A DNA stretch of 64,000 nt, from NCBI GenBank assembly GCA_963779415.1, contig CAVZYA010000001.1, positions 480,001 to 544,000 on the forward strand, in the 5' to 3' direction. The translations under genes and the position numbers were made by a program. Source of the DNA: an uncultured Acidobacteriota bacterium. Its GTDB lineage: Bacteria > Acidobacteriota > Thermoanaerobaculia > UBA5066. This document shows, one piece after another, positions 8,835-58,572 of this stretch. Below the pieces are notes generated by a model. That model was not told the DNA's origin. It saw nothing but the letters and a program-made list of their open reading frames with translations, and made no database searches. Numbering within the stretch: position 1 is the stretch's first letter; each line of letters opens with the position of its first letter.

Positions 8835-9323
8835 TCAGCCTCGCTGTGGCAGCTTCTTCAGAAGCGCGCGGTGGACGAGCGGAGGGACGAGACCCGAGAC
8901 GTCGCCTCCCAGCTCGTGGACCTGCTTGACGAGGCGGCTCGAGAGAAAGGAAAGCTCTTCCTTGGGCGTCAGGAAGATCGTCTCGACCTCCGGATCGAGG
9001 CGCCGGTTCATCAGCGCCATCTGGAACTCGTACTCGAAGTCCGACATCACCCGGAGGCCGCGGACGACGACGTGCGCCCCCTCCTTCCGGACGAAGTCGA
9101 CGAGGAGGCCCGAGAACGCCTTCACGACGACCTTCGGCTCGCGCCGGAAGATCGCCCGGATCATCCGGATCCGCTCCGTCACGTCGAAGAGCGGTGCCTT
9201 CTCGACGTTCTGAAGCACGGCCACGAGAACGCGGTCGAAAATGCGGCAGCCGCGCAGGACGATGTCGACGTGTCCGTTCGTCATCGGATCGAATGACCCC
9301 GGATAGATGGCGATGCGTTTCAC
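8835..9323 (-). CDS. coaD: Phosphopantetheine adenylyltransferase
   Basis: YPGSFDPMTNGH, RGLR..SDFEYE, LSSRLVK. Confidence 0.97.
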   Translation of the reverse strand: MKRIAIYPGSFDPMTNGHVDIVLRGCRIFDRVLVAVLQNVEKAPLFDVTERIRMIRAIFRREPKVVVKAFSGLLVDFVRKEGAHVVVRGLRVMSDFEYEFQMALMNRRLDPEVETIFLTPKEELSFLSSRLVKQVHELGGDVSGLVPPLVHRALLKKLPQRG

Positions 9324-41437: not shown

Positions 41438-42571
41438 ATGAAAGAAGTCAGAAAGTCGTTCTTCCGGTTCGTTCTTCCAGCCGCGATCGTCGTTACGATT
41501 CTGGTGGCCGCGGCGCCCGCAAACGCCCAGGCCATCCTCAAGGTCTCGGACACGGTGAACCTCAAGTTCGGCATCCTCATGCAGGGGTGGGCCGACTGGC
41601 AGCAGACCCAGGCGGCTGGGGAGACGAATGGCTACGCGCAGAACCTCTTCCTCCGCCGGATGCGCATCCTGATGGCCGGCCAGGTCGCGAAGGACGTCAC
41701 GTTCTTCCTCGAGACGGACGACCCCAACCTCGGCAAGGCCCCGAAGAATCTCTACAACGTCGCGGACACGGCGACTTCGCCGGGATTCATCATCCAGGAC
41801 GCGTTCATGCAGTGGAAGATCGCGAACGAGTTCATGATCCAGGGCGGCCTCATCCTGATCCCGCTCTGCCGCAACTGCAACACGAGCGCCGCCTCGCTGC
41901 TGACGCTCGACTATGGATCCTTCTCCTTCCTCGAGAGCGCGACCACGCAGTCGGTCGTCGGCCGTGACACCGGCTTCCAGGCCGTGGGCTATCTCCTGAG
42001 CGATCGCCTCGAGTACCGGGCCGGCGCTTATCAGGGCTTCCGCACGGCCAACTCCCACAACTCGTTCCGCTTCACCGGACGCCTCCAGTACGACTTCCTC
42101 GACGTCGAGAAGGGGCAGTTCTACCCGGGCACCTACCTCGGGAAGAAGAAGGTCCTCGCGATCGGCGCCGGCTACGACACGCAGGGCGACTACAAGGCGT
42201 ACGCCTTCGACGGCTTCCTCGATCTCCCGGTCGGAAAGGGGAACGGGCTCACTGTCGAGGCGGACTTCGTCCACTACGACGGCGGAACCTTCTTCACGAC
42301 CATGTACAACCAGGACACGGAGATGGTCCGGGCCGGCTTCTACTTCGGCGGCGTCAAGCTGATGCCGTTCCTCCAGTACGAGAACGAGTCGTTCAAGGAC
42401 GACATCCGGAAGGTCCTGAACAGCAGGAACTTCCAGGCGGGCCTCGCCTACTATCCCTACGGCTACAACTTCAACATCAAGCTCGCGTACACCCTCCGCG
42501 AGAGGCCGAACGACCCCGTGACCGCGAACACGAACGAGTTCACGCTCCAGATGCAGCTTTTCTACTTCTGA
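41438..42571 (+). CDS. Outer-membrane porin (OprO/P / short-chain-amide porin-like)
   Basis: Signal peptide ending ANA-Q, FLRRMR and GRDTG motifs, amphipathic strands, C-terminal Phe (QMQLFYF). Confidence 0.8.
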   Translation: MKEVRKSFFRFVLPAAIVVTILVAAAPANAQAILKVSDTVNLKFGILMQGWADWQQTQAAGETNGYAQNLFLRRMRILMAGQVAKDVTFFLETDDPNLGKAPKNLYNVADTATSPGFIIQDAFMQWKIANEFMIQGGLILIPLCRNCNTSAASLLTLDYGSFSFLESATTQSVVGRDTGFQAVGYLLSDRLEYRAGAYQGFRTANSHNSFRFTGRLQYDFLDVEKGQFYPGTYLGKKKVLAIGAGYDTQGDYKAYAFDGFLDLPVGKGNGLTVEADFVHYDGGTFFTTMYNQDTEMVRAGFYFGGVKLMPFLQYENESFKDDIRKVLNSRNFQAGLAYYPYGYNFNIKLAYTLRERPNDPVTANTNEFTLQMQLFYF

Positions 42572-43959: not shown

Positions 43960-43999
43960 CCGTCAGACTTAATAACGTGCCTTCATGGAGGTCCAAAAC

Positions 44000-45484
44000 A
44001 TGGCGGAAAAAAGAAATGTCGAGATCAAGAGCCGACAGGACACGCTGGCTCTGATCACTCCAGAAATCAGGCCCTGGCCTGTCTCACCACCCCCTTCGCC
44101 GGAGGAAGTGAAGAAGTCCTACGCCAAGCGGAAAGCCGAGGTGTTCGGCCAGTGGCTCGAAGACAACATGCGTCTCGAGTATTCCTGGCAGAAACCCGAG
44201 GCCCTGCAGGGCCTGAAGGTCCTCGACATCGGGCTCTGGAGGCTGGGGCACAAGTTCGGCGCCTCCACGCTCGCGCAGGCCGGTGCCGAGGTGATCTGTA
44301 TCGAGCCCCCCACGGGCGACCCGCTCAGACAGCTGACCCCCTTCGGGCGGGAAGAGTACATGCTCGCCGACAAGGAAACCGGCGAGAAGTGCGGCCTCGG
44401 GTTCATCGACATACACCGGAACACGCACTCGGTCACCCTCAACGTCGAGACTCCGGAGGGGCAGGAGCTGTTCAAGAAGCTCGCGGTCCACGCCGACATC
44501 GTCCTTGACGGGATGCTCCCCGGCTACATGGACAACCTCGGGATCGGGTACCGGGACCTCTCCCAGATCAACTCCCGCCTCATCTACGTGAACGTCATGC
44601 TCCGGGGATCCTGGGGCCCGGCAAAAGACCGCGTCTCCAAGTTCGGCCAGTGGGAACTGGATCCCTTCGCGCAGGCGACCAATTCGTACATTCACAACAC
44701 CGGCTTCGCTCAGGACGCGCTGCCGCGCGGCAAAGGGGGCGACCCGACCCGGGCCGGGTCGTGGCTCGCCGACTATGTCGCCGGCGAGCAGGCGGCCGTC
44801 AACGCCCTCGCGGCGATCTACTGGCGGGAAGAGGTCAGCAATGAGGGGCAGTTCATCGAGGTGACCGGCGCCGAGACCCTGATGGACATCCTCGACTTCG
44901 ACATCTCCTGGTACGGCTTCAACGGCAGCATCAAGGCGCGGACAGGGGGATGGGACCCCAACCTGAACCAGTATGCGTGGAACCCGTGCCGGGACGGCTA
45001 CATGATGATCGGCGGCCAGAGCGACCGGCTCTGGTACCGGATCGGCATGTGCATCGAGCGGGACTTCCCGCAGTTCGGCCGGCTCATCCACGAAGACCCC
45101 TTCCTGAAGGAAGTCGGCGCGCGGAACGCCCTCCACGCCCTCATCAAGACCTACACCGTCACGACGCGCTGGCTCCGGGAGACCAATCGGATCGAGGCCG
45201 AAGAGAAGCTGATGGACTACGAGATCGCGGCCGGCCCGCTCCTCTTCATCGACGAGACCTGCGAGTTCCCCCACTTCAAGTACCGGCCCTGGGTCTACAA
45301 CTGCGAGACGGACTACGGGACCGTCCTCTACTCGACGGTCAATAACGCCTATCAGATGAGGACGCCGCACCGGGTCAAGTGGCTCGGGAGACGGCTCGGC
45401 AAGGACAACTACGACGTCTACCAGCGCTGGGCCGGACTGGGCCCGAACAAGGTGGACCAGCTCAAGGGAAAGGGGGCGATCTAA
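44000..45484 (+). CDS. Family III (CaiB/BaiF) CoA-transferase, subunit 1
   Basis: [43 protein letters not shown], catalytic-Asp region WLADYVAG. N-terminal extension. Confidence 0.88.
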
Positions 45485-46872
45485 TGGCCGGCGAGATCAG
45501 ACCCAAGAGTGCGGGCGAGCTGCATGAGATGCGGGCGCCCTACGAGGAGTTCTGCCGGAAGGCCTTCGATCCCGGCAACGAGCACTCGAAGCCCGAGTCG
45601 CTGAAGGGGATCCGGTGGCTCTCCTGCACGATGTACATCTTCACGCCCCACTCGGCCGCGAACCTGGCCGAGCTGGGCGCCGAGGTGATCAAGATCGAGA
45701 TCCCCCGGATGGGCGACGCCATGCGGCACACCTCGCCCTTCAACGAGGCGTACCTCTATCCCCTCCACGACACCCGGCCGGGGACGGGAACCGGGTTCGG
45801 GTTCACGAACGCCAACCCGAACAAGCACTTCATCTCCCTCGACTATCACGTACCGGAGATGCGGGAAGTTTTCTACAACATGGTCCGGCAGAGCGACGGG
45901 CTGACCGAGCTCTACCGTCCCGGGACCTTTGACCGCTGGAAGATGAGCTACCCGACCCTCGCGCAGATCAACCCGCGGTTCATCTACGTCTGGGGCGGCG
46001 GGTTCGGCTACGGGCCGAAGGTCTTCGGGGGCTCCTATGACATCCTCGCGCAGTCCCACGCCGGGTTCGCGTCCATCACCGGAATGCACGACTTCATGGG
46101 CGGCCACTGCTCCAAGTCATCCAACTGGGTCATGGACTGGGCCTCCGGCACCCTGATCACGTTCGGGATCCTCGCCTCCATTCTCTGGCGCCGGAAGACC
46201 GGCCTCGGCACCATGATCGAGTTCTCGCAGGTGCAGACCTCCACGATGTTCACCGAGTATGCCGTTCCTCTTTACGGCCGGTTCGGCATCGTCCGGCAGC
46301 GGTGGGGAAACTGGGACACCCAGCTCTGCGCCCACGGGATCATCCTTTGCGGCAAATCCGACTTCCCCGATGCCCAAAACCCGCAGGACAAGTTTGACGC
46401 CCGGTACGTCATGGTCTCCGCCTTCCAGGATGCGGACTTCAAGGAACTCTGCAACGTCGTCGGCCGGAAAGACATCTACGATAAATACAAAACGCACAAG
46501 GACCGGCTCGACCCCCGGGCCCAGGTCGACATCTACCAGGCGCTCGAGAAATGGGCCGGAGACAAGACCCGGGCGGCGGTGGTCAAGGTCCTGACCGACG
46601 CCGGCATCCTCGCCTCCCCCGTCATGAACGACCGGGAAGTCTACGAGTACGAGCACTACCGCGAGCGGGGCACCGTCCGCTGGATCGACGACCCCCTCTT
46701 CGGCGACTTCCTCCTGCAGGCCGGCTACAGCGCCGGCCACCTGGCCAAGACCCCGAGAAGGACGAACTGGATCTGGCGGCCCGTTGGCGCCGACAATGTC
46801 AAGATCTACCGGGATCTGCTCGGCTATCCACTGAGCAAGATCGAGGAGTGGTATGGCAAGGCCTACATCTAA
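45484..46872 (+). CDS. Family III (CaiB/BaiF) CoA-transferase, subunit 2
   Basis: [35 protein letters not shown]...[14 protein letters not shown] overlap with the previous gene. Confidence 0.88.
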
Positions 46873-46886
46873 AAGGAGGCAGCGCC

Positions 46887-47372
46887 GTGTGTGACATCAT
46901 CTGGTGCAAGAAGCAGGTTTCCGGCAAGACGTGCAACACCGTCAATTACCTGGACCCGTACAACTTCTGGAACTGGGAAGGCAAGGTGAACTGCGCCGAG
47001 TGCGGGACCGTCTACGCCATCCACATGATCCAGGGCTTCATGTACAAGGGGCCAACGGAGAAACCCGGAGAGAAGCCCGACATGAGTCCCCTCTACGCCG
47101 ACAAGCCGCTGGAGGGCTACCGGTGTTACCTTCCCGGGATCGAGGGCAGGACGAGGCCTTGGCAGTGCCTCCCCCGACATATCTACCTCGGCCACGCGGA
47201 CACGGTGAAGTGGAGCCTCCGCGGAAGACCCGTGCGTGGCTGGCGTCCTCAGCCGAAGTCTGCAGGCATCGCTGGAAGCTTCGGCCACAAGTGGGATATC
47301 GAGAAACTCTCACCGGAGATCTGGGCCGAATACCAGGAGAAGCTGAAGAGCGGGAAGCTGAAGGACTGGTGA
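46887..47372 (+). CDS. Hypothetical 161-aa protein with N-terminal zinc-ribbon-like Cys motifs
   Basis: RBS AAGGAGG then GTG. MCDIIWCKK...TCNT...NCAECGTVY. Corresponds to the C-terminal part of ORF 46551..47372. Confidence 0.75.
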   Translation: MCDIIWCKKQVSGKTCNTVNYLDPYNFWNWEGKVNCAECGTVYAIHMIQGFMYKGPTEKPGEKPDMSPLYADKPLEGYRCYLPGIEGRTRPWQCLPRHIYLGHADTVKWSLRGRPVRGWRPQPKSAGIAGSFGHKWDIEKLSPEIWAEYQEKLKSGKLKDW

Positions 47373-47394
47373 GACATTCAGAAAGGAGCGCCAC

Positions 47395-47655
47395 ATGGCC
47401 GAGGGAAAACAGTTAACGCCTGAAGAATTCCTGGCTACGGTTCTCGTGCCGCAGTATGGCCGGGAAAGCGGGCACATGTGCTGGGATTGCAAGCACTTCA
47501 AACCGGTTCTGAAGGGCTCCAAGTTCCCGCCCACCGACACGATCGGCTGGTGCACGCAGATCCACTGGCCCTTCTACTGGTGCGTGACGGACTTCAACGT
47601 CGTCAAGAAGTGCTACGCCTTCGAGAAGGGCATTTACACCTTCAAGAAGTTCTGA
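47395..47655 (+). CDS. Small Cys-rich protein, BssB/BssC-like putative Fe-S subunit
   Basis: RBS AAGGAG. C-x2-C-x20-C-x9-C-x9-C: CWDCKHF...IGWC...YWC...KKCYAFEKG. Confidence 0.6.
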   Translation: MAEGKQLTPEEFLATVLVPQYGRESGHMCWDCKHFKPVLKGSKFPPTDTIGWCTQIHWPFYWCVTDFNVVKKCYAFEKGIYTFKKF

Positions 47656-47656
47656 C

Positions 47657-47950
47657 ATGGAGGAGAACGTCCGGAAGGAGCTGGATACGCTCACGGGGAT
47701 GGTGCTGACCTGGAAGAAGGACTATCTCGGGTCGGTATCATCCGATGAGGACTGCGAGTACCTCGCTCGGGAATTCCTGGACGAGGTGGAGACCCACGTC
47801 TACCCCTACGTGAGGAGGCTCATGGAATGCAATTTCCTCACGGGACCGGAGGCGACGGAGTTTCTCGACTCCTGCTATCGCCAGGCAGAGGAGCTGAACA
47901 AAGCCATCCAGCAGCCGGACGCCAAACAGGGTGAAACGATAGGAGGGTAA
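47657..47950 (+). CDS. Hypothetical acidic alpha-helical protein (97 aa)
   Basis: 1-nt gap after the previous stop, natural composition, in operon. Confidence 0.7.
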   Translation: MEENVRKELDTLTGMVLTWKKDYLGSVSSDEDCEYLAREFLDEVETHVYPYVRRLMECNFLTGPEATEFLDSCYRQAEELNKAIQQPDAKQGETIGG

Positions 47951-47952
47951 AC

Positions 47953-48372
47953 ATGGCTGAGAAATGCCGAGTGGGGGTCTGCGGGTACGACCCCGTTCTG
48001 GTGAAGGGATACGTCAAGACAGGCGAGCGAGCCCTCTGGTGGCACCTGTCGGACGAGGTGTACGAACAATACCAGGTGAAGCCGGGTGACACCGTCACCG
48101 GGAAGATCCTGGCGGTTTACGACGGGACCGGCACGAAGACGGCCTCCCCGAACGAGCCCTTCGAGTGGAAGTGCCCGAAGGAGTCGGGCCTGGCGGTCCT
48201 CCTGCCGCCTGCGACCATCGTCAAGTTCAAGCTCTCCGCTTTCCATTTCCTCGAGCTGCTCGTGGAGAAGGTCGGCGGAAAGGACGTCTATCCCGGCAAG
48301 GAGCAGATGAGCTTGAAATGGTGGCCCGAAGAGAGGATGAAGCTCGACTACAAGGTGCCTTACATCGAGTAG
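47953..48372 (+). CDS. Hypothetical 139-aa protein, possible AbrB-like/cradle-loop barrel
   Basis: RBS AGGAGG. LSDEVYEQYQVKPGDTV and LPPATIVKFKL resemble swapped-hairpin repeats. Confidence 0.7.
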   Translation: MAEKCRVGVCGYDPVLVKGYVKTGERALWWHLSDEVYEQYQVKPGDTVTGKILAVYDGTGTKTASPNEPFEWKCPKESGLAVLLPPATIVKFKLSAFHFLELLVEKVGGKDVYPGKEQMSLKWWPEERMKLDYKVPYIE

Positions 48373-48466
48373 AACACAGGACGCTCTCTCCCCCGCTCCC
48401 TTGAAGCGCCGGTTCCGTTCGGACCGGCGGGCAAGGACCGGGCGGGGCGAAATCAGTCGCTCACGG

Positions 48467-48511
48467 CCCCCTCTCCTGGCCCTGAAGCACCAGGAGAGGG
48501 GGATTCTTTTT
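48467..48511 (+). terminator. Rho-independent terminator
   Basis: Perfect 13-bp stem CCCCCTCTCCTGG / CCAGGAGAGGGGG with a 10-nt loop, followed by ATTCTTTTT. Confidence 0.75.
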
Positions 48512-48566
48512 CATGTATCCTCGGCGATGGAACGGTGACATTCGATCGGAAGGGAGAATCGCGTAC

Positions 48567-48809
48567 ATGACAGAACACGACAAGCCGAATGAAGAGGGCT
48601 ACACGGCTCCGGCGTACGTCGACCCGGCGATGGGCGACAGCCCCCCCGTCGGAGGCCTGATTGACAACGAGGCCGTCTGCCGGGACTGCATGACCGCCGC
48701 CGAGGAAGTCAGCATGCGGCGCGGGTTTGTCGACCCCGTCTCCGAGCAGCAGGCCAAGGCGAAGGGGACCGTCTGCGCCCGGTGCGGCAAGAAACTCGTC
48801 GCCGCGTAG
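48567..48809 (+). CDS. Small zinc-finger protein (CRDC...CARC)
   Basis: RBS GGGAG, start MTEHDK, two CxxC pairs, 80 aa. Confidence 0.72.
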   Translation: MTEHDKPNEEGYTAPAYVDPAMGDSPPVGGLIDNEAVCRDCMTAAEEVSMRRGFVDPVSEQQAKAKGTVCARCGKKLVAA

Positions 48810-48852
48810 CGCCCCCTTCAATCCAGCCGGACGGGGCGGGCGGAATCACCTC

Positions 48853-49266
48853 ATGGCAGAGCCGGAAAAGGCCCCACGACGAGAGGTCGTCGAGCAGCTC
48901 CTGCCGCTCGTGGTGGAGTTGATTCCAGGGCAGGCGGCTGAAGGCCTGATCGAAGTGCTCGAGCCGGGCAGCTACGAGGCCCATTCCCTCCGGACGCTTT
49001 GCGAGAATCTCCTCAGGAGAACGAACTGGAGCGTGGAGGAGCAGCAGGTCCTGGAGGACATCAGGAGACAGCTCGACGGGGGCCGGCTCCTCTGCCGGGG
49101 CCGACCCGTCGACGGCCGGGCTCTGGATCTCGCGGTGGTCGAGGAAACCGAAGCAGGCGAGAAGTATCTCTATGTGCCTGTCCACGCCATCAGGCCGCAG
49201 GAAGGCGGAGGCGCGGCACCCCGGATCGCGCACCAAAGTTCAGCAGACGAGAGCAGGAGCCTATGA
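48853..49266 (+). CDS. Putative ubiquitin-like (beta-grasp) protein with GG motif and C-terminal extension
   Basis: Start MAEPEK. Helix SLRTLCENLL, strand RLLCRGRPVD, terminal strand YLYVPVHAIRPQEGG, then an 18-aa tail. Co-operonic with JAB, E1 and E2-like genes. Confidence 0.62.
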   Translation: MAEPEKAPRREVVEQLLPLVVELIPGQAAEGLIEVLEPGSYEAHSLRTLCENLLRRTNWSVEEQQVLEDIRRQLDGGRLLCRGRPVDGRALDLAVVEETEAGEKYLYVPVHAIRPQEGGGAAPRIAHQSSADESRSL

Positions 49267-49469
49267 GTTCCAGGTTCGTAGTCACGGAGAGCACCACGGT
49301 GGACGATGTTGCCGCGGCGGGCCGGCCCGACCCCCTCTACTGCAAACTCGGCCTGGGCCAGCAGGCCCGCGTCCTCGCGGACGAGATCGATGCCGCGCTT
49401 GGTGGGGATACGAGCTGCGGGGGCGCCGGACTCGGATATGTTCCGGACATCGTAGAGGTTGAAGAATAG
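49263..49469 (+). CDS. Hypothetical 68-aa acidic protein
   Basis: RBS AGGAG, ATGA overlap with the Ubl gene. MSSRFVVTEST...DIVEVEE. Confidence 0.6.
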   Translation: MSSRFVVTESTTVDDVAAAGRPDPLYCKLGLGQQARVLADEIDAALGGDTSCGGAGLGYVPDIVEVEE

Positions 49470-49482
49470 CCTGGAGAATCGC

Positions 49483-49677
49483 GTGGAGATAGAGGCTCCC
49501 AAGGACTGGGACCCGAAGTGCCCAAAGTGCCAGGAAGAGCTTCGACGAATGCTCGAGCTGTCACAGTCGGTCTACGAGGACCTCGACCACGGCGCGGGGT
49601 TGTACCGGTTGCCGTTGCCACCTTGCACGCACCATGCGGCGCAGGGCGAGCACAAAGACGCAGGAGGGGTCGCTTGA
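49483..49677 (+). CDS. Small putative zinc-binding protein (CPKC...CTH)
   Basis: GGAG RBS before GTG (alternative TTG start at 49459). CxxC plus CxH ligands. Confidence 0.6.
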   Translation: MEIEAPKDWDPKCPKCQEELRRMLELSQSVYEDLDHGAGLYRLPLPPCTHHAAQGEHKDAGGVA

Positions 49678-49717
49678 CAGACCCACTTGTGGCTTTCCGG
49701 CCGTCGGGCGCCCCGGC

Positions 49718-50929
49718 ATGATGGATCTGCTGGAGTCCGACCTGGAGCTCGTCGTCCGGTCAGGATTCATCTACCTGCCGCTCCTCTTTGATCCTTCGGT
49801 GGCGACGGAGATCGAGGGGAACGTGGGCAATCACCTGGTCGCCCGGGACGCCGGCAGGCATTTCGTTCGGACGATGAGCCTGCGATCGCTCGTTTCAAGC
49901 TACGAGGCTCTCTGGCCGAAGTCGTACGAGAAGTTGCGGCGGTCGAAGCTGTGCCGGTTCTCCGGGGACCTTTCGCCGGCCGAAACGGGCGCCAGCGAGC
50001 GGCTGAAGGAGATCCTCTTCTCCGTCATGCCGCACTTCGTCAGGAGGGGGAAGCGGCTCGACAGGAGGCGGCTGACCGAGGAGGACGTGCTGGACCTCAT
50101 CGAGGAGAGAACCGGACTTCCCGGCGGATACGCCATGGCTGCAGCCAGCGCTCGGGATCCGGGCTCCATCCGGCAGATCCTCGTGGAACTCGAGGAACGC
50201 CGCCCGGCGGCCGAGCCGCTGCCCGAGGGCCGAATGTCTGCGCGGACCCTCGCGGATTGGCTTCTGCGCGCCCAGGAAGCCCGGATTCTGGAAGAGGAGA
50301 GCCAGCGACTGACGGGGTTTCTCTCCGCGCAGGAGGGCCTCGATACGAGGGCGGCCAGGCGGCTGGCGATTTTGCGGTGCGTCGCGGAGAAGGGGACGTT
50401 GGAAATCGACGGATTCGGCTTTCTGAGGACAGGACCCGGCGACGACTACGTGATCTACAAGCGCACCGGCGAGTTCGCTCTCAAGGACTACTACGGTCGG
50501 CTCTATCTGTTTCCGGATTGCCGGGTTGCCGTGTCGACGGCCGCTGGCCTCAGGCCCTTCGTCGTGGAGACCTACAAGCATCCGTTTCTCGAGGCCCACG
50601 ACTCCGGCCAGGAGATCTGCCTGGGCCGCACCACGGCGCGCCGCTTCTCCGGAGCGGCGGCGATCGTCGAGGCTCTGCAGGAGGGAATCAACGCCCTGCT
50701 CCATGGCTACAGCAGCCGGCGCCGAAACGGGTACCACAGACTGGAGGGACTGTTGAGGTCGGTCCGGCTCCCTGGCCCGGACGATCCCGGCTACCCGGAA
50801 CCGCCGGACGACAGGCCCCGCTCCAAGCGGCACATCCTGGACGTCGACTTCGACGACTACCGCATCCCGGCCGATCACCCCGGGATCGTGTCGGGTCGGG
50901 TCGAGATCACCAACGACGTCGTGCCGTGA
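49718..50929 (+). CDS. Putative prokaryotic E2 (ubiquitin-conjugating-like) domain protein with helical N-terminus
   Basis: C-terminal beta-meander, then PFVVETYKHPFLEAHDSGQEICLG (His codon at 50579, Cys codon at 50618) followed by a helix, resembling the E2 HPN...ICL signature. Confidence 0.6.
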   Translation: MMDLLESDLELVVRSGFIYLPLLFDPSVATEIEGNVGNHLVARDAGRHFVRTMSLRSLVSSYEALWPKSYEKLRRSKLCRFSGDLSPAETGASERLKEILFSVMPHFVRRGKRLDRRRLTEEDVLDLIEERTGLPGGYAMAAASARDPGSIRQILVELEERRPAAEPLPEGRMSARTLADWLLRAQEARILEEESQRLTGFLSAQEGLDTRAARRLAILRCVAEKGTLEIDGFGFLRTGPGDDYVIYKRTGEFALKDYYGRLYLFPDCRVAVSTAAGLRPFVVETYKHPFLEAHDSGQEICLGRTTARRFSGAAAIVEALQEGINALLHGYSSRRRNGYHRLEGLLRSVRLPGPDDPGYPEPPDDRPRSKRHILDVDFDDYRIPADHPGIVSGRVEITNDVVP

Positions 50930-51402
50930 TGACGACGGACGACACCCTCTCGCGGGACGAGCCGCCCCGGGCGACGCCGGATCTGTTGCGGGACATAAGA
51001 ACCATGCGCGCCGGCAGGCGGCGGAAGGAGCCCTTTCGGACGAGCCTCTACTCCCGGGTCGGGGGTCTGGTGAGGCGATATGGCCTGGACGAGGCGTTCC
51101 TCCGGGCGCTCGACTCCCCGGGCGGCTTCTCCCGGGACGGCCGTCCGGATGCCGTCCGGCCGAAGGGGAAAGCGCCCTATGCTCCTCCCCTCTTTTTCCT
51201 TTCCACGGAGAGAGAGCACCGCGTGACGACGGTCATCCTGGAGAAAGTGAAGAGCCCGTTCCTCGCGTACGCCACGTCGCCCGACGAGATTCTCCTCTGC
51301 GAACGCCTGTTCCGTGAGGACCCGTCCCTTTCTCAGGAAACGCTCGCGTGCCATCATTTCGAGACGTTGATGCCGGCCGGAGCGGATTCCGGGCCGGGCT
51401 GA
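50929..51402 (+). CDS. Hypothetical 157-aa protein
   Basis: TGATG overlap with the E2-like gene, start MTTDDT. C-terminal part of ORF 49951..51402. Confidence 0.65.
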   Translation: MTTDDTLSRDEPPRATPDLLRDIRTMRAGRRRKEPFRTSLYSRVGGLVRRYGLDEAFLRALDSPGGFSRDGRPDAVRPKGKAPYAPPLFFLSTEREHRVTTVILEKVKSPFLAYATSPDEILLCERLFREDPSLSQETLACHHFETLMPAGADSGPG

Positions 51403-51417
51403 GGCGGGAGGAGAGTC

Positions 51418-52518
51418 GTGGAACGGATTTCGCCGCAACGCCGCCGGGAGATCGGGGAGAGAGTCGGCGCATTCCGCGAGAGCCAGGTCGGCGACGCCGT
51501 CAATCAGATTCTCGAGTTCGACAAGACGCCGGCCGACCTCAAGGCCTACATGGACCGGTTCGTCATCGGCCAGGAGCAGGGGAAGAAGATCATCTCCGTC
51601 GGCATCGCCTACCATTACCGGAGGCTCGCGGCGGCCCTCAGGCGCGCCGTCGTCGAGAACGGCGAGGAGCTGGGCGCCGCCTTGCACGGCGCGGCCACGC
51701 CGAAGGCCAACATCCTGATCGTGGGGCCCCCCGGCTGCGGGAAGACCTACACGGGCGAGGTCGCCTCCCGGCTCGTGGGGGTGCCGTTCGCCGTGGAGGA
51801 CCTGACGAAGTTCAGCGAAACGGGCTACGTGGGCCAGAACGTGAGCGACATCCTCCTGGACCTGCTGATCGCGGCCGGCGGCAACCCCCAGGTGGCCCAG
51901 ATGGGCATCGTCTACCTGGACGAGATCGACAAGATCGCCGCCGAGCCGATCGTCTCGAAGGACGTGTCGGGGCGCGGGGTCCAGAAGGGGCTCCTCAAGC
52001 TCGTCGAGGGGGCCGAGAACACCATCGACCTGGGCCAAGAACGGATCTCCCTTTCCACCCGACACGTCCTGTTCATCGCAGGAGGCGTGTTCGAGGGGCT
52101 GGAAGGAACCGTCGGAAAGCGGATGGAAAGGGATCGTCTCGAAGGCGAGTGGAAGGACCACCTCCTCACGGACGACTTCGTCGGCTGCGGGATGGAGCGG
52201 CAGCTCATGGGGAGGTTCCCCGTTCGGGCCGTCTACGACCCGCTCAGCGTCGAAGACCTCAAGAACATCCTGCTCGAGAGCGAGGAGAGTCCGTCCCGCG
52301 CCTACATCGACGACCTGAAGGCGTGGAACATCGAACTCCGGTTCACGGACGGCGCTCTCACGGAGGTCGCGAGGCGCGCGCAGCAGGATCGGACGGGCGC
52401 CCGGGGACTCATCGGCATCCTCCACAAGGTGCTTCTGGAGGACATGTACCGGCTTCCGGGCGTCCACACCGGCGAGCTGGTGGTGGACGAGAAGTACATC
52501 CGGGAGCGGCTCGGGTGA
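51418..52518 (+). CDS. ClpX-like AAA+ ATPase lacking the zinc-binding domain and IGF loop
   Basis: VIGQE, Walker A GPPGCGKT, pore loop GYVG, Walker B YLDEIDK, DVSG.GVQ..LLKL, GRFP, GARGL. Confidence 0.88.
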
Positions 52519-53321
52519 GATTCCGGGGGCTCTCGGAGCTGAAGCGCGCGCCATGCTTCGAGGCTCCCGTGGGAACCCTGCCGGAGTGGATCCGGATGAC
52601 GCGTCACTCCCTCGCGAAGGCCTTCAAGATCAACGAGCTCGTCCGGTCCGTCCACGGGGACAGCTACGAGTGGTACGGATTCACCGTCGCCGAGCGGAGC
52701 GATCCGGAGCTGGTCGTGGACGTTCTTCTTCCGGCCAACGACGAGAACTTCACGGACCACACCCGCGTCGCACCCGAGGCGATCGACGCGTCGAGAGAGT
52801 CCCTCCCCCGGGATCGGGTGATCAACGGCTGGATCCACTCCCACGGGGCCCTGCCGTACGAAGGGTTCTCCTTCGTGGACGAGAGGAACCAGGAGGCCGT
52901 GACCGATTACGTGAACACGCTTCTCAGGAAGCCGGTGGCCAAGAAGGAGATCCTGATCAGGGACCTCGCGATCCTCGTCGAGGGCCGCTTCTCGGAGAAG
53001 GAGCTGGAGCAGGGAAGCGTCGCGCTCATCACCGACGCCCCCGTCAAGGAGGCCCGGATCATCGAGACCATATACGGAAGCTTCTGCTTCGCCATCGTCA
53101 TCGGCGACGACGGCTGGCACAGGCAGCAGGTCCATTACCGCAGGCGGGGCATCCTTTCCGGGCAGACGACCGAGGAGAGCCGGGACACCGACATCGTCCT
53201 TTCGGGCGACGCGCGGCCGCTCACCGAGGCGGAGATCCAGATGCTGGCGGACGAGGTCCGCACCCGGATCCGGCCGGGCGTGGCCGTTCCACCCGAGCGG
53301 TTCGAGCGGGAGGCGACATAA
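52515..53321 (+). CDS. JAB/JAMM (MPN+) metallopeptidase
   Basis: GTGA overlap with the ATPase. Upstream Glu (YEWYGF) and GWIHSHG...FSFVD (HxH-x7-S-x2-D type motif). Confidence 0.82.
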
Positions 53322-53358
53322 GGTCGGCGGCGGCCTGGGGCGAAGGGACGCGATCGGC

Positions 53359-54636
53359 ATGGAGACGGGACCGGCTCGCGAGAAGGCGCATGACCCGAGG
53401 CTGGACCGCCAGCTCCGGATCCCGAACTGGAACCAGCGGGCCCTCGAGGAGGCGCGGCTCGCCGTCTTCGGCGACGACGACCTTCTCGCCTCGCTCTACG
53501 TCCTCTCCGCCGCGGCCCTCGGCGTGAACGACGTCGTCCTGATCGCGCCCGCCTGGAATGAGAAGCTGATCGAAATCGCCCGCCAGCTCAATCCGAGGCT
53601 CAGGCTGGCCCTCCTCGAGGGGCTCCACACCCACCCGGTCCTGGAGGAGCTCTTCAGGCCCTGCACGGCCATCGTGGACCTCACCCGCTACGCTCTGGCC
53701 AACAAGCTTCTGCTGGAGACGGGCTACCGGTCGGGAATTCCGGTGATCCGTGGGTTCTGCCTCGAGAAAGACGGGTGGGAAGGGCTCTCCGTCTTCACCT
53801 ACAGGCGCGGCCGGGAGTGGGAGGAGCTCCGGGAGCTCGTCTCGCCCTCCAATCTTCCCTGCGACCACTTCGACGACGCGATTCTGGCCCTCGTCGCGGC
53901 CGGCATCGCCCTGGAAGAAACCAAGAACGTCATCATGGGACACCGGGTGTCGGAGGAGCTGATCGGCTACAGGCGGCCGAAGGTGGTTCCCCTGGAGCCC
54001 GACTCCGGCGTCATCATCGTCGGCGCCGGCGCCCTGGGTAACTTCGTCGGGCTCGGACTGGCCTGTACGGGGCTCCGGCGAATCACGGTCGTCGATCCCG
54101 ACGTGGTGGACGTGACTAACCTCAACAGGCAGGTGCTCCTGGCCGGCGGCGTAGGCCGAAGCAAGGCCGAGGTCCTCTGCGAGCGCCTGCACTCCCTCTT
54201 CGGAATCCGGGCGGAGGCCCGGGTGGCTTATTTCCGGAAGGACTCCGAGCTCGACGCCTCCGACGCTGTCTTCGATTGCGTGGACAACTTCGAGACCCGG
54301 GTGATCCTGAGTGAGAGGTGCCGGGAAGAGGGAAAGGTGCTCATCAGCGGCGGCACGGGCCCTCAGGCCGGACAGGTCATCGTGTTCGATCCGGCGCGCC
54401 CGAGCGAAACGCCCGCGGAGGTTCTGGGACTCTACGAAATCGTCGAGAGGCGGGAGATCGACGCCTTCCGGAGGGAGACGGCGTCCTGCGCCTACCAGCC
54501 CGATCCGTCCGTCGTCATGACGAATCAGATTATCGGAGGATTGATGGCCGATTCCTATCGTAGGCTCCTGGCCGGAGAGGAGACCCCGAATATCTTCTAC
54601 GATTCGAGGAACGACGCCCGGATCTTCGGGGGGTGA
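53359..54636 (+). CDS. E1-like ThiF-family enzyme with tandem inactive and active adenylation domains
   Basis: N-domain RLDRQLRI...AVFGDDDLLA (degenerate nucleotide loop). C-domain IVGAGALG, DPDVVDVTNLNRQ, DCVDNF, candidate catalytic Cys in TASCAYQPDP. Confidence 0.88.
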   Translation: METGPAREKAHDPRLDRQLRIPNWNQRALEEARLAVFGDDDLLASLYVLSAAALGVNDVVLIAPAWNEKLIEIARQLNPRLRLALLEGLHTHPVLEELFRPCTAIVDLTRYALANKLLLETGYRSGIPVIRGFCLEKDGWEGLSVFTYRRGREWEELRELVSPSNLPCDHFDDAILALVAAGIALEETKNVIMGHRVSEELIGYRRPKVVPLEPDSGVIIVGAGALGNFVGLGLACTGLRRITVVDPDVVDVTNLNRQVLLAGGVGRSKAEVLCERLHSLFGIRAEARVAYFRKDSELDASDAVFDCVDNFETRVILSERCREEGKVLISGGTGPQAGQVIVFDPARPSETPAEVLGLYEIVERREIDAFRRETASCAYQPDPSVVMTNQIIGGLMADSYRRLLAGEETPNIFYDSRNDARIFGG

Positions 54637-54709
54637 TAGAGTCGCGGCGAATTGCGTCCTGACGTGATGCGACGGCGAAAGGCCGCGGATCAGGGCCGAA
54701 GGAGCCGAG

Positions 54710-55933
54710 ATGAGCAGCGAGAACGACGTCGCGCAGACTCAGGAGGACCAGCCGATCGGCTGGCAGCGCCTCGGCGACGTCCTGACACCGCCGATTCCCG
54801 GCTTCGAGGACCTCCTCTTCCTTCCGAGCCTCGACAATCAGTCCTCCAACATCTACGTCCTGCCGGGGGACTGCGTAACGATCGTGGACCCGGGGAACGA
54901 TTACACGGCCTTAATGGAGCTCTTCCCTGCGAGAGCCAGGCCCGAGGACGTCAGGAAGATCGTCCTGACGCACGGGCATTTCGACCACGCCATGGGGGCG
55001 CTCGAGTTCCTCAGGACGTATCCGGATCGCCCCACGGGCGCGCGCATCGAGCTGATCCTCCACGAAGGGGGTCCCGACCAGTTCAAGCAGACGGCGAGGG
55101 AGCAGGGCGCCTCCGTGACCGAGGTACGGGGCGGGGAGACTCTCGAGCTGAGCGGCCTTTCCTTCGACGTGATCTACACGCCAGGCCATACCATCGACGG
55201 CATCGCCCTCTATCACGCCCCCTCGAGGACCGTCTTCAGCGGCGACGTCGTGCTGCCGCTCGCGGTAGCCGGACCCGATCCCAAGGCCGGGGGAAGCCTG
55301 GACCAGTACCTGTTCGGGCTGAGGGCGTTGCTCGCGAGGGAGATCGAGAACGTCCTCCCGGGCCACGGCCCCGTCGTCGGCCCGGGCGGGAGGAAGGTCA
55401 TCGAGCAGACCTACGAGGCCGTCATGATGAAGCTCCTGGGGGTCGAGAAGCCGATCCCGTGGATCCAGGGTGCCATTCAGCTCGCGGAGCGCGGGCTGCT
55501 GGAAGAGGCCGTTTTCTGCGCCGGGAAAGAGCTGGCCCGCGACCCGGGGCACGCCAAGGCCCTCGAGCTCAAGGCCGTGTGCCTCAACGATCTCGGGCGG
55601 TCGTCTGAGGCCCTCGAGGTCCTGGATCGGCTGCAGGAGCTGCAGGCCGGCGACGATGCGTTCATCCACGTCGGCAGGGGATATGCCCTCATGGGGCTTG
55701 GCCAGTTCGAGGAGAGCGTCAAGTGCTTCGACGCCGCTCTCCGCATCACGCCGGGCCTGAGGGACGCGCTCGTCTACAAGGGGATGGCCCTCCATCTCTC
55801 GGGGAACCACGAGGAGGCCATGGACATCGAGCCCTTCAGGACGGAGTTCATGGGGCGGTTCCGGAGCGAGCTGCTCAAGGCGTCGCGGCCCGCCCCGAAG
55901 GATGGCCTCGCCGAAGGCACTGGAAAGGCCTGA
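54710..55933 (+). CDS. Metallo-beta-lactamase-fold hydrolase with C-terminal TPR repeats
   Basis: THGHFDH, TPGHT, SGD, PGHG metal ligands. TPR-like helices in the last ~150 aa. Confidence 0.88.
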   Translation: MSSENDVAQTQEDQPIGWQRLGDVLTPPIPGFEDLLFLPSLDNQSSNIYVLPGDCVTIVDPGNDYTALMELFPARARPEDVRKIVLTHGHFDHAMGALEFLRTYPDRPTGARIELILHEGGPDQFKQTAREQGASVTEVRGGETLELSGLSFDVIYTPGHTIDGIALYHAPSRTVFSGDVVLPLAVAGPDPKAGGSLDQYLFGLRALLAREIENVLPGHGPVVGPGGRKVIEQTYEAVMMKLLGVEKPIPWIQGAIQLAERGLLEEAVFCAGKELARDPGHAKALELKAVCLNDLGRSSEALEVLDRLQELQAGDDAFIHVGRGYALMGLGQFEESVKCFDAALRITPGLRDALVYKGMALHLSGNHEEAMDIEPFRTEFMGRFRSELLKASRPAPKDGLAEGTGKA

Positions 55934-56058
55934 AAAAAGACTTCGAGATCCCGGGGCCAAGGGATAGACTCGCTCGCGTTTCACCCCAGATTCCGACCGC
56001 GGCCCGCGTCGCCGGCCTCTCCCGGCGAGCCGGGCAAGAGACAGGAGGAGACGTCGCC

Positions 56059-57732
56059 GTGAGCACGATTCCCGAAAACTATCTTCCCCCGAAGGAGTTC
56101 CAACCCGAGCGGATCTACAAGCTGAAGGAGTTCGCGAGCTACCCGGATCCGCTGAACAGCACCGAGGAGCTACTCGACAAACAGATCGCCGCGGGCCGGG
56201 GCGACAGCCCGGCGGTCCTCTTTGCGGACAAGGTCCTGACCTACAAGCAGCTTCTGGGGGCGTCCTGCAAGATCGGGAACGCGCTCCGGAAGCTGGGGGT
56301 CGAGGAGTCGGACCGGGTGTTGCTCCGCTCTCCGAACGTTCCGCCCGCCCTCTTCACGAACTTCGGGGTCCTGAGGCTCGGGGCGGTCATCGTCCCGACC
56401 TCTCACATGCTCTCCCCCCCGGAGATCATCCACATCGCCAACAACGCCGAGGCGAAGGTGATCGTGGTGGCGTCCGCGTTCCTCGAAGGGGTCATCAAGG
56501 CGCGCCCGAACCTGAAGACCGTCAAGCACGTCATCGTCTTCGGCGGCCAGCCCGAGGAGCTGAAGAAGCAGGATCTTCTCTGCTACGAGGAGCTCGTCGC
56601 GAACGAGGCGCCGGCCTTCGCCCCGGTACGCCGTCCGCGCAAAGCCGTCGCCGTTCTTCTTTACACCTCGGGCACGACCGGCCTGCCGAAAGGGACGGTC
56701 CACTACCAGGAAGAGGCCCTGATCGTTCCGGACACCTTCGGCAAGTACGGATGGAACGTCCAGCCGGAAGACATCATCTGCGGACCCGCGCCCATCTCGC
56801 TGGCCGGCGGATACTCGACCGTGGCGACGATCCCCTTCCGGTTCGGCGCCGCGGCCTCCCTGATTCCCAAATTCACGCCGGACGGGCTCTTCGAGACGGT
56901 CCAGAATCACAAGGTGACGATCCTGAGCGCCCTCCCCACGGCGTACCGCAAGATGCTCGAGGTTCCCGGCGCGGAGAAGAAATACAACCTCTCCACCCTC
57001 CGCGTCCTGACCGGTGGCGGTGAATCGCTGACCGCAAAAACCTACAACGACTGGAAGGGGCGCTTCGGCCAGGAGATCTACGAGGGGCTCGGCACGTCGG
57101 AGATGATGTACGTCTTCGTCTCGAGCGTGGTGACGCGGAAAGTCAAGCCCGGCGCGATCGGCACCGCCGTCCCCGGTTACGAGATCCAGGTCATCACCGA
57201 GGAGGGAAAGGTCGCCAAGCCCGGAGAGCTGGGCCGGCTTTACGCCCGCGGGCCGACGGGGACGCTCTACTGGCGCCCGTACGAGGACGGCGGCAGCATG
57301 CTGGAGAAGCAGAAAGCCGTCATCCGCGAGGGGTGGGTGCTCGTCGGGGACTTCTGCACGATAGACGACGACGGGTACCTCAGCTTCGTGTCGCGCCAGG
57401 AGGACCTGATCAAGAGCTCCGGCTACCGGATCGGACCCGAGGAGGTCGAGGACGCTCTTCTCAAGCACCCGGCCGTGGCGGACGCCGGCGTGATCGGGGT
57501 TCCGGACCCCGTCCGGGGCCACAACGTCAAGGCCTTCGTCCTCCTGAGGCCCGGACAGACGCCGAGCGACGAGCTGAAGCAGCAGATCATCGACAGTTGC
57601 CGAGATCACATCGCGATCTACAAGCTTCCCCGCATCATCGAATTCACGAGCGAACTCCCGCGCACCCTCCAGGGGAAGCTCCTCCGGCGGGTTCTGCGGG
57701 ACAAGGACAAGGGGGCGGCTCCCGCGAGCTAG
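56059..57732 (+). CDS. AMP-forming acyl-CoA ligase (benzoate/2-aminobenzoate-CoA ligase-like subfamily)
   Basis: RBS AGGAG + GTG. YTSGTTGLPKG, EGLGTSE, GD, SR.EDLIKSSGYRI.P.EVE, LPRT..GKL.R. Confidence 0.88.
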   Translation: MSTIPENYLPPKEFQPERIYKLKEFASYPDPLNSTEELLDKQIAAGRGDSPAVLFADKVLTYKQLLGASCKIGNALRKLGVEESDRVLLRSPNVPPALFTNFGVLRLGAVIVPTSHMLSPPEIIHIANNAEAKVIVVASAFLEGVIKARPNLKTVKHVIVFGGQPEELKKQDLLCYEELVANEAPAFAPVRRPRKAVAVLLYTSGTTGLPKGTVHYQEEALIVPDTFGKYGWNVQPEDIICGPAPISLAGGYSTVATIPFRFGAAASLIPKFTPDGLFETVQNHKVTILSALPTAYRKMLEVPGAEKKYNLSTLRVLTGGGESLTAKTYNDWKGRFGQEIYEGLGTSEMMYVFVSSVVTRKVKPGAIGTAVPGYEIQVITEEGKVAKPGELGRLYARGPTGTLYWRPYEDGGSMLEKQKAVIREGWVLVGDFCTIDDDGYLSFVSRQEDLIKSSGYRIGPEEVEDALLKHPAVADAGVIGVPDPVRGHNVKAFVLLRPGQTPSDELKQQIIDSCRDHIAIYKLPRIIEFTSELPRTLQGKLLRRVLRDKDKGAAPAS

Positions 57733-57759
57733 GCGCCGACCCCGGCGAGGAGGCCGGCC

Positions 57760-58572
57760 ATGGCGGTCGTCACGGTGTCGCGCGGAGCCGGGAGCAAGGG
57801 GCAGGCATTCGCCCGGCAGCTTGCCGACCGCCTTGGATACGAGCTCGTCAGCCGGGAGGACGTCGTTCAGGCGGCGGCTAAATCCGGCGTCCCCGCCGAG
57901 AGGTTGCAAAAAGCGCTTCTCGAGGCGCCCGGCTTCTGGGACAGGCTCACCCTCGACCGGAAGCGATATCTGGCGTTCGTCCAGGCGGCGCTTTCGGAGC
58001 GGGCCCGCAAGGACCGGATCGTCTACGAGGGGAACGCGGGACACCTGCTGCTCCGCGGCGTCTCGCACGTCGTCTGCATTCGTCTCCTGGCGCCGCTCTC
58101 GCACCGCGTCCAGACGGCCGTGGAAACTCTCGGGATGAGTCACGACGAAGCCGTTCGTTACATCGAGAGCTCGGATCACGAACGGGAGAACTGGACGCGC
58201 TTTCTCTACGGCGTGGACTGGCTCGATGCCGCCCTCTACGACGTCACCCTCAATCTGAGGACGCTCCTGATCGACGGCGCCGTCGAGGCGGCGCTGGCGG
58301 TCGTCCAGCGCCCGGAGTTCGCGCCGACCGGAGAGAGCCGGAGCGCGATGGAGAACCTCGTTCTGGAAAGCCGCGTGCAGGCGGCCCTCGCGTCCAATGG
58401 CGAGACCGCGGCGGCGGCGGTCCAGGTACATGCCGGGGACGGAGTCGTGTCGCTTCGGGGCCGGGTCCGCCCGGCCCGGATGGTCGACGCCGTCCTCGGC
58501 GTCGTCGGCCGCGTGGACGGTGTGAAGGAGATCGACTCGCGGGACCTCGGAGCGCCCGACTACACCGTTTAG
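57760..58572 (+). CDS. Cytidylate-kinase-like family protein with C-terminal BON domain
   Basis: VVTVSRGAGSKG P-loop-like, YD.TLN. BON-like VQVHAGDGVVSLRG. Confidence 0.8.
   Translation: MAVVTVSRGAGSKGQAFARQLADRLGYELVSREDVVQAAAKSGVPAERLQKALLEAPGFWDRLTLDRKRYLAFVQAALSERARKDRIVYEGNAGHLLLRGVSHVVCIRLLAPLSHRVQTAVETLGMSHDEAVRYIESSDHERENWTRFLYGVDWLDAALYDVTLNLRTLLIDGAVEAALAVVQRPEFAPTGESRSAMENLVLESRVQAALASNGETAAAAVQVHAGDGVVSLRGRVRPARMVDAVLGVVGRVDGVKEIDSRDLGAPDYTV

Follow-up and report, generated by a model that had tools for sequence, protein, structure and literature searches.

Can a bacterial genome encode, within one short run of genes, both a ubiquitin-like tag with the enzymes that attach it and a dedicated ATPase that acts on what has been tagged? 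The question is raised by a locus in 64,000 nucleotides of DNA from an uncultured Acidobacteriota bacterium (GenBank assembly GCA_963779415.1, contig CAVZYA010000001.1, positions 480,001 to 544,000 of the forward strand); this whole stretch is referred to below as the window, and its source genome as G000. An earlier note, made from the letters alone, had described ten co-directional genes at 48567-55933, among them genes for a ubiquitin-like protein (Ubl), activating (E1) and conjugating (E2) enzymes, a JAB peptidase and a ClpX-like ATPase, and had proposed an undescribed conjugation operon with its own unfoldase, embedded in an island of acyl-CoA metabolism. As analyzed here, a six-gene cassette within this run is real and conserved, and is set apart by a ClpX-derived unfoldase, a new helical partner protein, a divergent E2-like enzyme and a link to a block of CoA-transferase genes. 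We consider it reasonably probable that the cassette represents a new ubiquitin-like conjugation system, resembling those termed Bil, that is coupled to an unfoldase.

A conserved six-gene cassette

The open reading frame (ORF) list and translations confirm ten co-directional ORFs on the + strand at 48567-55933. Gene starts were taken from the same list and translations; the GC content at each codon position is of coding type in all ten (0.75-0.91 at third positions, GC3, and 0.40-0.53 at second positions, GC2). Overlapping junctions, also claimed at the outset, are present at three sites: the Ubl gene and the small ORF s1 share 4 nt (ATGA), s1 and a second small ORF, s2, share 11 nt, and the E2-like gene shares 1 nt (TGATG) with the gene behind it, here called hyp. 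The remaining junctions are gaps of 15-77 nt.

Related loci were collected by a pattern scan over one genome per species, which found 113 of them, 80 being kept. Occurrence of each gene was then counted by tblastn with queries from the window over these 80 loci, many of which lie on short contigs. Six genes make up the recurrent core:

48853..49266, + strand: Ubl, 137 aa; predicted beta-grasp core at residues ~17-119, ending in an invariant PQEGG, then an 18-aa non-conserved tail; 71 of 80 loci.
49718..50929, + strand: E2-like protein, 403 aa; predicted UBC-type core within residues ~86-383, broken by a helical insertion; H288, P289 and C301 invariant; 80 of 80 loci.
50929..51402, + strand: hyp, 157 aa, mostly helical, of no known family, always immediately upstream of the ATPase; 74 of 80 loci.
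51418..52518, + strand: ClpX-family AAA+ ATPase, 366 aa; Walker A, Walker B and GYVG pore loop kept, zinc domain, RKH stretch and docking loop missing; 65 of 80 loci.
52596..53321, + strand: JAMM/JAB metallopeptidase, 241 aa; E25, H81-S-H83, S92 and D95 invariant; 60 of 80 loci.
53359..54636, + strand: E1, 425 aa; degenerate N-terminal Rossmann-like half, then an active-type ThiF domain at residues 216-411; C307 and C377 invariant; 62 of 80 loci.

All six are found together in 39 of the 45 loci with room for a whole cassette. The order Ubl-E2-hyp-ClpX-JAB is constant, and E1 stands either after JAB or before Ubl. Linkage of E1 and JAB to the same partners, the ATPase included, is kept in most of the 80 loci, all from other genomes. 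What stands of the ten-gene operon first proposed is this core of six; the genes Znf, s1 and s2 are clade-specific, and the last of the ten, encoding an MBL-fold protein with TPR repeats (MBL-TPR), belongs to a different block.

The modifier and the enzymes that would activate and process it

The Ubl matched no sequence family in Pfam or NCBIfam, and a profile search against PDB sequences returned nothing significant. Its alignment-based structural model (pLDDT 82, above 90 in the core) has the beta-grasp fold that had been suspected from the sequence. Foldseek placed Smt3, MoaD and NEDD8 best (E = 0.012-0.04), with UBL3 also among the matches (probability up to 0.96), and in a VIA-align search the top row was SUMO2 (Z 6.4, root-mean-square deviation, rmsd, 2.8 A over 74 of 77 residues), with ISG15, FAT10 and 8tyz_B, the Ubl of a solved bacterial E1-E2-Ubl complex, also matched. 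PQEGG is invariant in all 31 aligned Ubl sequences (31/31), and conservation ends at its second glycine. Just four of 69 Ubl ORFs end right after GG; many have one extra residue and others up to ~20. Judged from these sequences, a glycine pair followed by a variable tail is the pattern of a modifier that would need a peptidase to expose its C-terminus. At three Desulfobacca-type loci (L010, L013 and L016, each at 9144-9959) a 272-aa form of the Ubl has a domain of ~150 aa beyond GG, and the tail at L013 matches GNAT acetyltransferase families (E = 9e-19); a Ubl-GNAT form of this kind would be a natural precursor needing cleavage at GG.

The tandem-ThiF architecture claimed for E1 holds. PF00899 matches residues 216-411 (E = 1.7e-35), and the N-terminal half begins like a ThiF domain, with GDDDLLAS where the glycine loop would be. 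In the C-terminal domain the adenylation motifs are intact, G222, G224, G227, N254-Q258 and D309 being invariant (glycine loop, NLNRQ and DxxDN), and the two invariant cysteines, C307 and C377, are putative thioester residues. The best solved relative is the eukaryotic Uba1 (E = 2e-20, two matched stretches), followed by MoeB, Uba4, UBA6 and SAE2, with Cap2 far lower.

The identification of the JAB peptidase is likewise upheld by the five JAMM residues, E25, H81, H83, S92 and D95, all invariant in 29 sequences. Prok-JAB (PF14464) matches 14 of these 29 family members, with a best E of 1.5e-4.

A divergent E2-like protein

The E2-like protein is the most constant member of the cassette and the least readily classified. 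The earlier note had expected a UBC fold here. The predicted model (mean pLDDT 73) appears to contain a UBC-type core, at modest Z, in keeping with that expectation; no sequence family adds its support. In a VIA search 39 of the 50 top rows were UBC, UEV or RWD proteins by title (Z 6.6-4.7), and the fold matches include BubB (9eav_D), Cap2 (7to3_A) and an E2 bound to CdnG (8hsb_B). Among 32 sequences the invariant positions are H288, P289 and C301, in the context KHPF...GQEIC, together with C268 and an RRRNGY motif. The label "E2-like" is therefore based on predicted fold and motif, for a protein outside any known E2 family.

This family of ~403 residues is conserved in its own right. Of 7998 candidates scored in a word-index search, 667 matched at E <= 0.001; no Pfam domain was present in the 120 of them listed, and those with a name were called hypothetical. 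An exhaustive search returned 142 representatives at E <= 0.001, 70 of them at E <= 1e-30. One family protein (P0260, 525 aa) is a natural fusion of Ubl and E2. At another locus (L041:4188-5762) the Ubl and E2 reading frames are separated by one stop codon, with read-through seen.

A separate and distant branch (P0206, P0210, P0214 and ~20 others, of ~430-590 aa) has just the C-terminal E2-like core in common with this family (query residues ~200-345); none of the 25 distant homologues has a Pfam domain. From its sequences, this branch may mark a second undescribed system.

A ClpX-family ATPase that has lost its protease-docking loop

The ATPase had been called ClpX-like, and it is. It matches NF003745, and its best PDB match is ClpX (2e-56), followed by mitochondrial CLPX and then HslU. 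It falls below both ClpX equivalog cut-offs (258.1 vs 359 bits for NF003745, and 235.3 vs 370.75 bits). Elsewhere, G000 has a true ClpX of its own, which scores 635.7 bits vs 233.6 for the cassette copy (cut-off 370.75). The two are 36% identical and align throughout the AAA+ core, Walker motifs, pore loop and sensor regions. In an alignment of 15 cassette ATPases with the ClpX of G000, GPxGxGKT, DExDK and GYVG are invariant, and all 15 lack the N-terminal C4 zinc domain, the 7-residue RKH stretch and a 13-residue MGF stretch. We take the last to be the IGF-type loop by which ClpX docks onto ClpP. Without this docking loop, the cassette ATPase is probably a stand-alone, protease-independent unfoldase, as far as its sequence can tell.

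The neighboring hyp is conserved in its C-terminal half. No lead to a family or fold was obtained: a profile search against the PDB returned ribosomal-protein noise, the ESM Atlas gave no usable match, and no longer, fused forms of the protein were found (evidence that the tool itself grades as weak).

Distribution

By title, the 80 kept loci are mostly from metagenome-assembled genomes (MAGs) of Desulfobacterota. Others come from Methylomirabilota (three), one Binatia MAG (two contigs), one Acidithiobacillales MAG (L003, the closest relative of the window locus) and one Nitrospiraceae MAG; the one cultured host on record is Desulfoferrobacter suflitae DRH4 (L078). Both contigs of the Binatia MAG (L005 and L007) have a full cassette plus the CoA-transferase block or part of it, so that this organism appears to harbor two copies of the cassette, or the bin to mix two strains.

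The cassette is sparse wherever it was sought. In a sample of 401 genomes from the phylum of G000 it was found in two, G000 and one weak match (E = 6e-4), and in an order where it is commonest it was found in three of 151. Relatives of the cassette's marker protein number in the hundreds in metagenomes from sediment, groundwater and soil. In a viral-contig collection, ten pattern matches were obtained, none of which was confirmed as a relative of the cassette.

Proposed mechanism

In the scheme that we infer, in its chemistry and order of steps as in the role of hyp and the identity of the targets, the Ubl would be made as a precursor from which the JAMM peptidase trims the residues beyond the invariant GG. 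The single-chain E1, with one inactive and one active half, would adenylate the exposed glycine and hold the Ubl as a thioester, probably on C377 or C307, before the tag is handed to Cys301 of the E2-like protein and thence to target proteins. The ClpX-family ATPase would engage the tagged proteins, possibly by way of the helical hyp encoded just upstream, and would unfold or extract them without degradation, a step proposed because the pore loops are present and the ClpP-docking loop and zinc domain are missing. The JAMM peptidase would finally remove and recycle the tag.

These steps differ in strength. Activation and processing of the Ubl C-terminus are very likely, given the triad of E1, Ubl and JAB and the pattern of a GG with a tail. 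The invariant cysteine in the E2-like protein, together with P0260, the natural fusion of Ubl and E2, makes a thioester relay likely. Protease-independent unfolding or extraction linked to the tag is the most economical reading of the adjacency of hyp, ATPase and JAB and of what the ATPase has lost.

Several observations weigh against this scheme, most of them concerning the E2-like protein. None of its 32 family members matches any E2 family in Pfam (UQ_con and Prok-E2 included) at E <= 1, its profile found no match among PDB sequences at E <= 10, and Foldseek returned no match to the model at E <= 0.001; all of the fold matches have Z below 7, a range that the tool grades as middling. Canonical E2s have an HPN motif followed by the catalytic cysteine; in the cassette protein Phe or Leu takes the place of Asn, and His and Cys are 13 residues apart. 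The window's own JAB has no Pfam match, and the sole PDB match of the JAB profile, an archaeal Rpn11-like protein aligned on the metal-binding motif GW[IY]HSH, is not significant (E = 1.2). The proposed link between ATPase and tag, hyp, has no recognizable fold or family, and neither an E3 nor a protease is encoded in the cassette. Six of the 45 roomy loci are incomplete as well (L026, L045, L046, L054, L062 and L077), the ATPase alone being absent from L062.

Relation to described systems

Bacterial families described so far comprise CBASS Cap2/Cap3, Bil types I and II, Bub types I and II, and the type 6a operons (with an MBL-fold gene) and related operons of Iyer et al. (PMC1779556, PMC11601603). 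The earlier note knew of no described system with this composition. No family library names one, and a full-text literature search, with subscription journals and supplements outside its reach, found none; within that same scope, no described bacterial family is reported with a ClpX-type ATPase. The comparisons that follow rest in part on curated models, of which NCBIfam and PADLOC may not cover every system.

The closest likeness is to Bil. According to Gong et al. 2024 (PMC11601603), Bil operons of types I and II encode BilA (Ubl), BilB (E2), BilC (JAB) and BilD (E1); the cassette likewise has separate genes for Ubl, E2, JAMM peptidase and E1, in the same order, and its Ubl is a single beta-grasp domain, as that account describes for most type II Bil operons. 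A solved bacterial Ubl, that of 8tyz_B, is among the structural matches named above. The cassette differs in the hyp and ClpX-family ATPase genes between E2 and JAB, in the large N-terminal part and helical insertion of its 403-aa E2-like protein, in the failure of any PADLOC or NCBIfam model to match its Ubl, E2 or JAB, and in its setting, in which no phage-defence context was seen.

Bub systems (types I and II, formerly 6E or DUF6527) are a further bacterial family in which a Ubl is conjugated by an E1 and an E2. Their BubB (9eav_D) ranks second among the structures matched by the model of the E2-like protein (Z 6.2, rmsd 3.8 A, 104 residues), and P0260, in which Ubl and E2 are naturally fused, resembles the BubAB of type I Bub (PMC11601603). 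In contrast to Bub, scans of the cassette proteins found no DUF6527 (BubE) protease, the genes are separate rather than joined as JAB-E1 or E2-E1 fusions, and the ATPase and hyp are added. With CBASS the relation is through the E1 adenylation domain, which matches CBASS E1-E2 models, and through Cap2, one of the E2 fold matches; for the 6A-MBL type, E1 is a weak match to NCBIfam cap2_3 (45.1 vs 320 bits), and an MBL-fold gene is associated with the type 6a operons of Iyer et al. 2006 (PMC1779556), as it is here. The scores of all these model matches fall far short of the cut-offs. From both, the cassette is distinguished by having no E2-E1(-JAB) fusion, no CD-NTase, and an MBL protein that has TPR repeats and travels with the CoA-transferase block. 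For PRTRC, E1 scores 51.5 bits against PRTRC_ThiF (cut-off 144.75), and NCBIfam has nothing on the Ubl, E2 or JAB.

The ordering of components recalls Bil closely enough that Bil-type defence against phages or other mobile elements has to be considered, with the Ubl conjugated to proteins of the invader and the ATPase acting as regulator or effector. The very patchy distribution is of the kind that such a role would produce, and the occurrence of the same cassette in several phyla suggests horizontal transfer. We nevertheless hold a defensive role to be unlikely. PADLOC matched only the E1 adenylation domain (CBASS E1-E2, <=55.6 bits), with four weak matches on the ATPase (IetA, mad8), and nothing on the Ubl, E2, hyp, JAB or MBL proteins. 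Diverse housekeeping, redox and regulatory genes flank eight cassettes that have no CoA-transferase block, and neither these flanks nor those of the window showed genes for restriction, abortive infection, integrases or transposases. The viral-contig collection yielded no relative, and the recurrent partner of the cassette is a metabolic-looking block of CoA-transferases.

With a coupled unfoldase, the conjugation system that we favor also invites comparison outside the bacterial families. In eukaryotic ubiquitin pathways with Cdc48/p97, and in the Rpn11/Rpt pair of the proteasome, a logic of beta-grasp tag, E1/E2 enzymes, AAA+ ring and JAMM peptidase is found that the cassette would combine in one set of genes; the cassette motor, however, is of the ClpX/HslU clade, not the classical Cdc48/Rpt clade, and no protease of 20S or ClpP type is encoded. 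The archaeal SAMP/Urm1 and Rpn11-like systems belong to the same comparison, the JAB match to an archaeal Rpn11-like protein being the non-significant one given above. To our knowledge, the only established bacterial protein tag with an AAA+ unfoldase of its own to read it is that of the Pup-proteasome of Actinobacteria (Pup, PafA, Dop, Mpa). The tag itself is disordered, its ligation is carried out by a glutamine-synthetase-like enzyme in the absence of E1, E2 or JAMM components, and Mpa feeds the 20S proteasome; the cassette, by contrast, has a beta-grasp tag with enzymes of E1/E2 type and encodes no protease. Compared with housekeeping ClpX, its ATPase shares the AAA+ core without the C4 zinc domain, the RKH stretch or the [IM]GF docking loop. 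Loss of that loop makes a p97-like reading a better fit than a ClpXP-like one. Pursued to its end, this would mean a pathway of ubiquitin-p97 type in some anaerobic bacteria, in which the tag is read by the ClpX-derived unfoldase with its helical adaptor, the JAMM peptidase strips the tag while unfolding proceeds or once it is over, and a hetero-oligomeric CoA-transferase complex is the main client; we advance this fuller version only tentatively, as a possibility.

The CoA-transferase block

The suggested client is encoded by a block of seven genes that adjoins the cassette in the window:

43985-45484, + strand: CoAT1, family III CoA-transferase (PF02515, CoA_transf_3, E = 9e-61); 15 of 80 loci.
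45484-46872, + strand: CoAT2, family III CoA-transferase (PF02515, CoA_transf_3, E = 1e-69); 16 of 80 loci.
about 46917-47372, + strand: g46, small protein without family; 17 of 80 loci.
47395-47655, + strand: g47a, small protein without family; 19 of 80 loci.
47657-47950, + strand: g47b, small protein without family; 19 of 80 loci.
47953-48372, + strand: g47c, small protein without family, the block marker; 21 of 80 loci.
48467..48512, + strand: intrinsic terminator at the end of the upstream part of the block; perfect 13-bp stem, 10-nt loop, U-rich tail.
54710..55933, + strand: MBL-fold hydrolase fused to TPR repeats (PF00753, E = 5.7e-24, plus TPR families); 27 of 80 loci.

The terminator had been noted as preceding the gene set, and a hairpin with a U-rich tail does lie between g47c and Znf: positions 48467-48479 pair with 48490-48502, and AUUCUUUUUC comes next. 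The hairpin has a computed stability of -28.9 kcal/mol, and 2 of 200 shuffles folded equally well. A consensus scan listed no sigma-70-like promoter; it also missed the terminator, whose 10-nt loop exceeds the 3-8 nt that the scan allows.

The identity of the MBL-TPR protein is as first stated; its membership in the cassette is not, for it travels with the CoA-transferases and stands beside g47c in other genomes. The order of the block is CoAT1-CoAT2-g46-g47a-g47b-g47c-MBL, and it can adjoin the cassette in three ways: upstream and co-directional, with MBL lying between g47c and Ubl; downstream and convergent; or, in the window and probably in L003, upstream with MBL shifted behind E1. Such adjacency is seen in 7 of the 22 loci whose flanks reach at least 6 kb to either side. 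In the 401-genome phylum sample g47c was found in one genome, G000 itself. Two of the three cassette-bearing genomes in the 151-genome order sample account for both strong g47c matches, and the sole other match is a 29-residue fragment at a contig edge. Five complete chromosomes have a cassette with no block adjacent to it; g47c occurs elsewhere in two of them and has no match in three. In the samples searched, then, the block was never found apart from the cassette, while some cassettes stand without the block, with the qualification that these co-occurrence counts are not independent, the genomes being related and several of them fragmented MAGs. Searched with g47c, the ESM Atlas returned unannotated clusters only. 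Where present, the co-inherited block of CoA-transferases and MBL-TPR is likely a client or partner of the cassette.

The metabolic setting first described must accordingly be divided. The CoA-transferases are a recurrent partner and no chance neighbor; the acyl-CoA ligase, an AMP-forming ligase encoded downstream of MBL-TPR, is not conserved. This ligase and the cytidylate-kinase-like/BON protein (CMK-BON) encoded after it were considered as parts of the system and rejected, each being present in 1 of 80 loci. Further downstream of the island, a trio of PEP-utilizing enzyme, response regulator and histidine kinase, found also beside L019, was set aside as a partner, since recurrence of the enzyme is limited to L003 and, with 36% identity, L019.

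The same block admits another account of the cassette, as a carrier-protein pathway in which, much as in the cases of ThiS, MoaD and CysO, E1 would activate the Ubl glycine for the chemistry of sulfur or acyl groups, JAB would only mature the carrier, and the CoA-transferases and MBL hydrolase would process a small-molecule thioester. MoeB, Uba4 and ThiF rank high among the solved relatives and NCBIfam matches of E1, operons of Ubl, E1 and JAB for sulfur metabolism are documented by Iyer et al. 2006 (PMC1779556), strong matches to g47c fall only in cassette-bearing genomes of the samples searched, and the best NCBIfam match of the MBL protein is hydroxyacylglutathione hydrolase, a weak one (45 vs a 200.8-bit cut-off). 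We judge this account improbable, however. E1 showed no rhodanese domain, and neither the cassette nor its annotated flanks yielded a cysteine desulfurase or sulfurtransferase; the two-half build of E1 and its top match to Uba1 are features of conjugating E1s; an E2-like protein with an invariant cysteine, and an unfoldase with pore loops, have no obvious role in small-molecule chemistry; and three of the five complete genomes tested have the cassette without the block.

An ATPase acting independently of the Ubl system, perhaps as a general chaperone that is merely co-transcribed, would accord with L062, which keeps Ubl, E2, hyp, JAB and E1 without it, and is nonetheless very unlikely, since hyp, ClpX and JAB stay adjacent in different phyla and where E1 and the CoA-transferase block have been rearranged, a housekeeping ClpX is already present in the genome checked (G000), and the cassette copy has specifically lost the zinc domain, RKH and docking loops of ClpX.

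Accessory genes and genomic setting

Around the conserved core of the cassette, three of the original ten genes appear to be local additions:

48567..48809, + strand: Znf, 80 aa, with two CxxC pairs; clade-specific accessory, GC3 0.88, a 56% identical copy only in L009; 1 of 80 loci.
49263..49469, + strand: s1, 68 aa; found otherwise only in L003, the closest relative; 1 of 80 loci.
49459..49677, + strand: s2, 72 aa, with one CxxC; conserved in the 8 loci outside Desulfobacterota; 8 of 80 loci.

Library scans gave no family match above threshold for Znf. Clustering of all ORFs revealed an extra conserved helical protein of ~90 aa (cluster c10) in 31 loci, of which the window has no copy. It has a conserved C-terminus, ...L[WF]G.PHG (WGC in some), and is encoded between E2 and hyp, after E1 or before E1 (for example L005:5365-5697, L018:5831-6100 and L036:3353-3622). 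Directly upstream of Ubl, on the same strand, a gene for an ArsR-family helix-turn-helix regulator is present at L023:8795-9433 and L042:9250-9606, with a matching ORF cluster in 11 loci; in the one Desulfobacterota group concerned, this protein is a candidate for regulating the cassette.

Every real-looking gene at 43985-58572 lies on the + strand, with codon-position GC of coding type throughout; the wider context in the window is ordinary chromosome. In 2-kb bins the GC content of the window ranges over 0.61-0.72, being 0.61-0.67 at 40-58 kb vs 0.66-0.72 in the first 40 kb. The lower GC of the island and the absence of cassette and block from the other genomes of the phylum sample fit horizontal acquisition. 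Two further ORFs of the window were noted in passing: one at 25001-26266 (- strand) combines a NusB domain with a transglutaminase-like core, and another at 41438-42568 (+ strand; 377 aa, high GC3) is without a Pfam family, both calls being simply greedy longest ORFs.

Significance

Bacterial systems of E1, E2, Ubl and JAB have so far been known as modules of phage defence or stress (CBASS, Bil, Bub). At their core, the lid-base pair of the eukaryotic proteasome and p97 work by combining a ubiquitin-type tag with a ring ATPase and a JAMM peptidase, and the cassette would provide a minimal, tractable model of tag-directed unfolding that bears on the origin of this coupling. That its motor comes from the ClpX clade and not from the Cdc48/Rpt clade suggests convergence. 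The link to the CoA-transferases supplies a concrete candidate client and also draws attention to four conserved small proteins. If the p97-like reading with its CoA-transferase client is true, bacteria would be using a ubiquitin-like tag to control a metabolic enzyme complex, and a beta-grasp tag would have been joined to an AAA+ motor a second time, independently.

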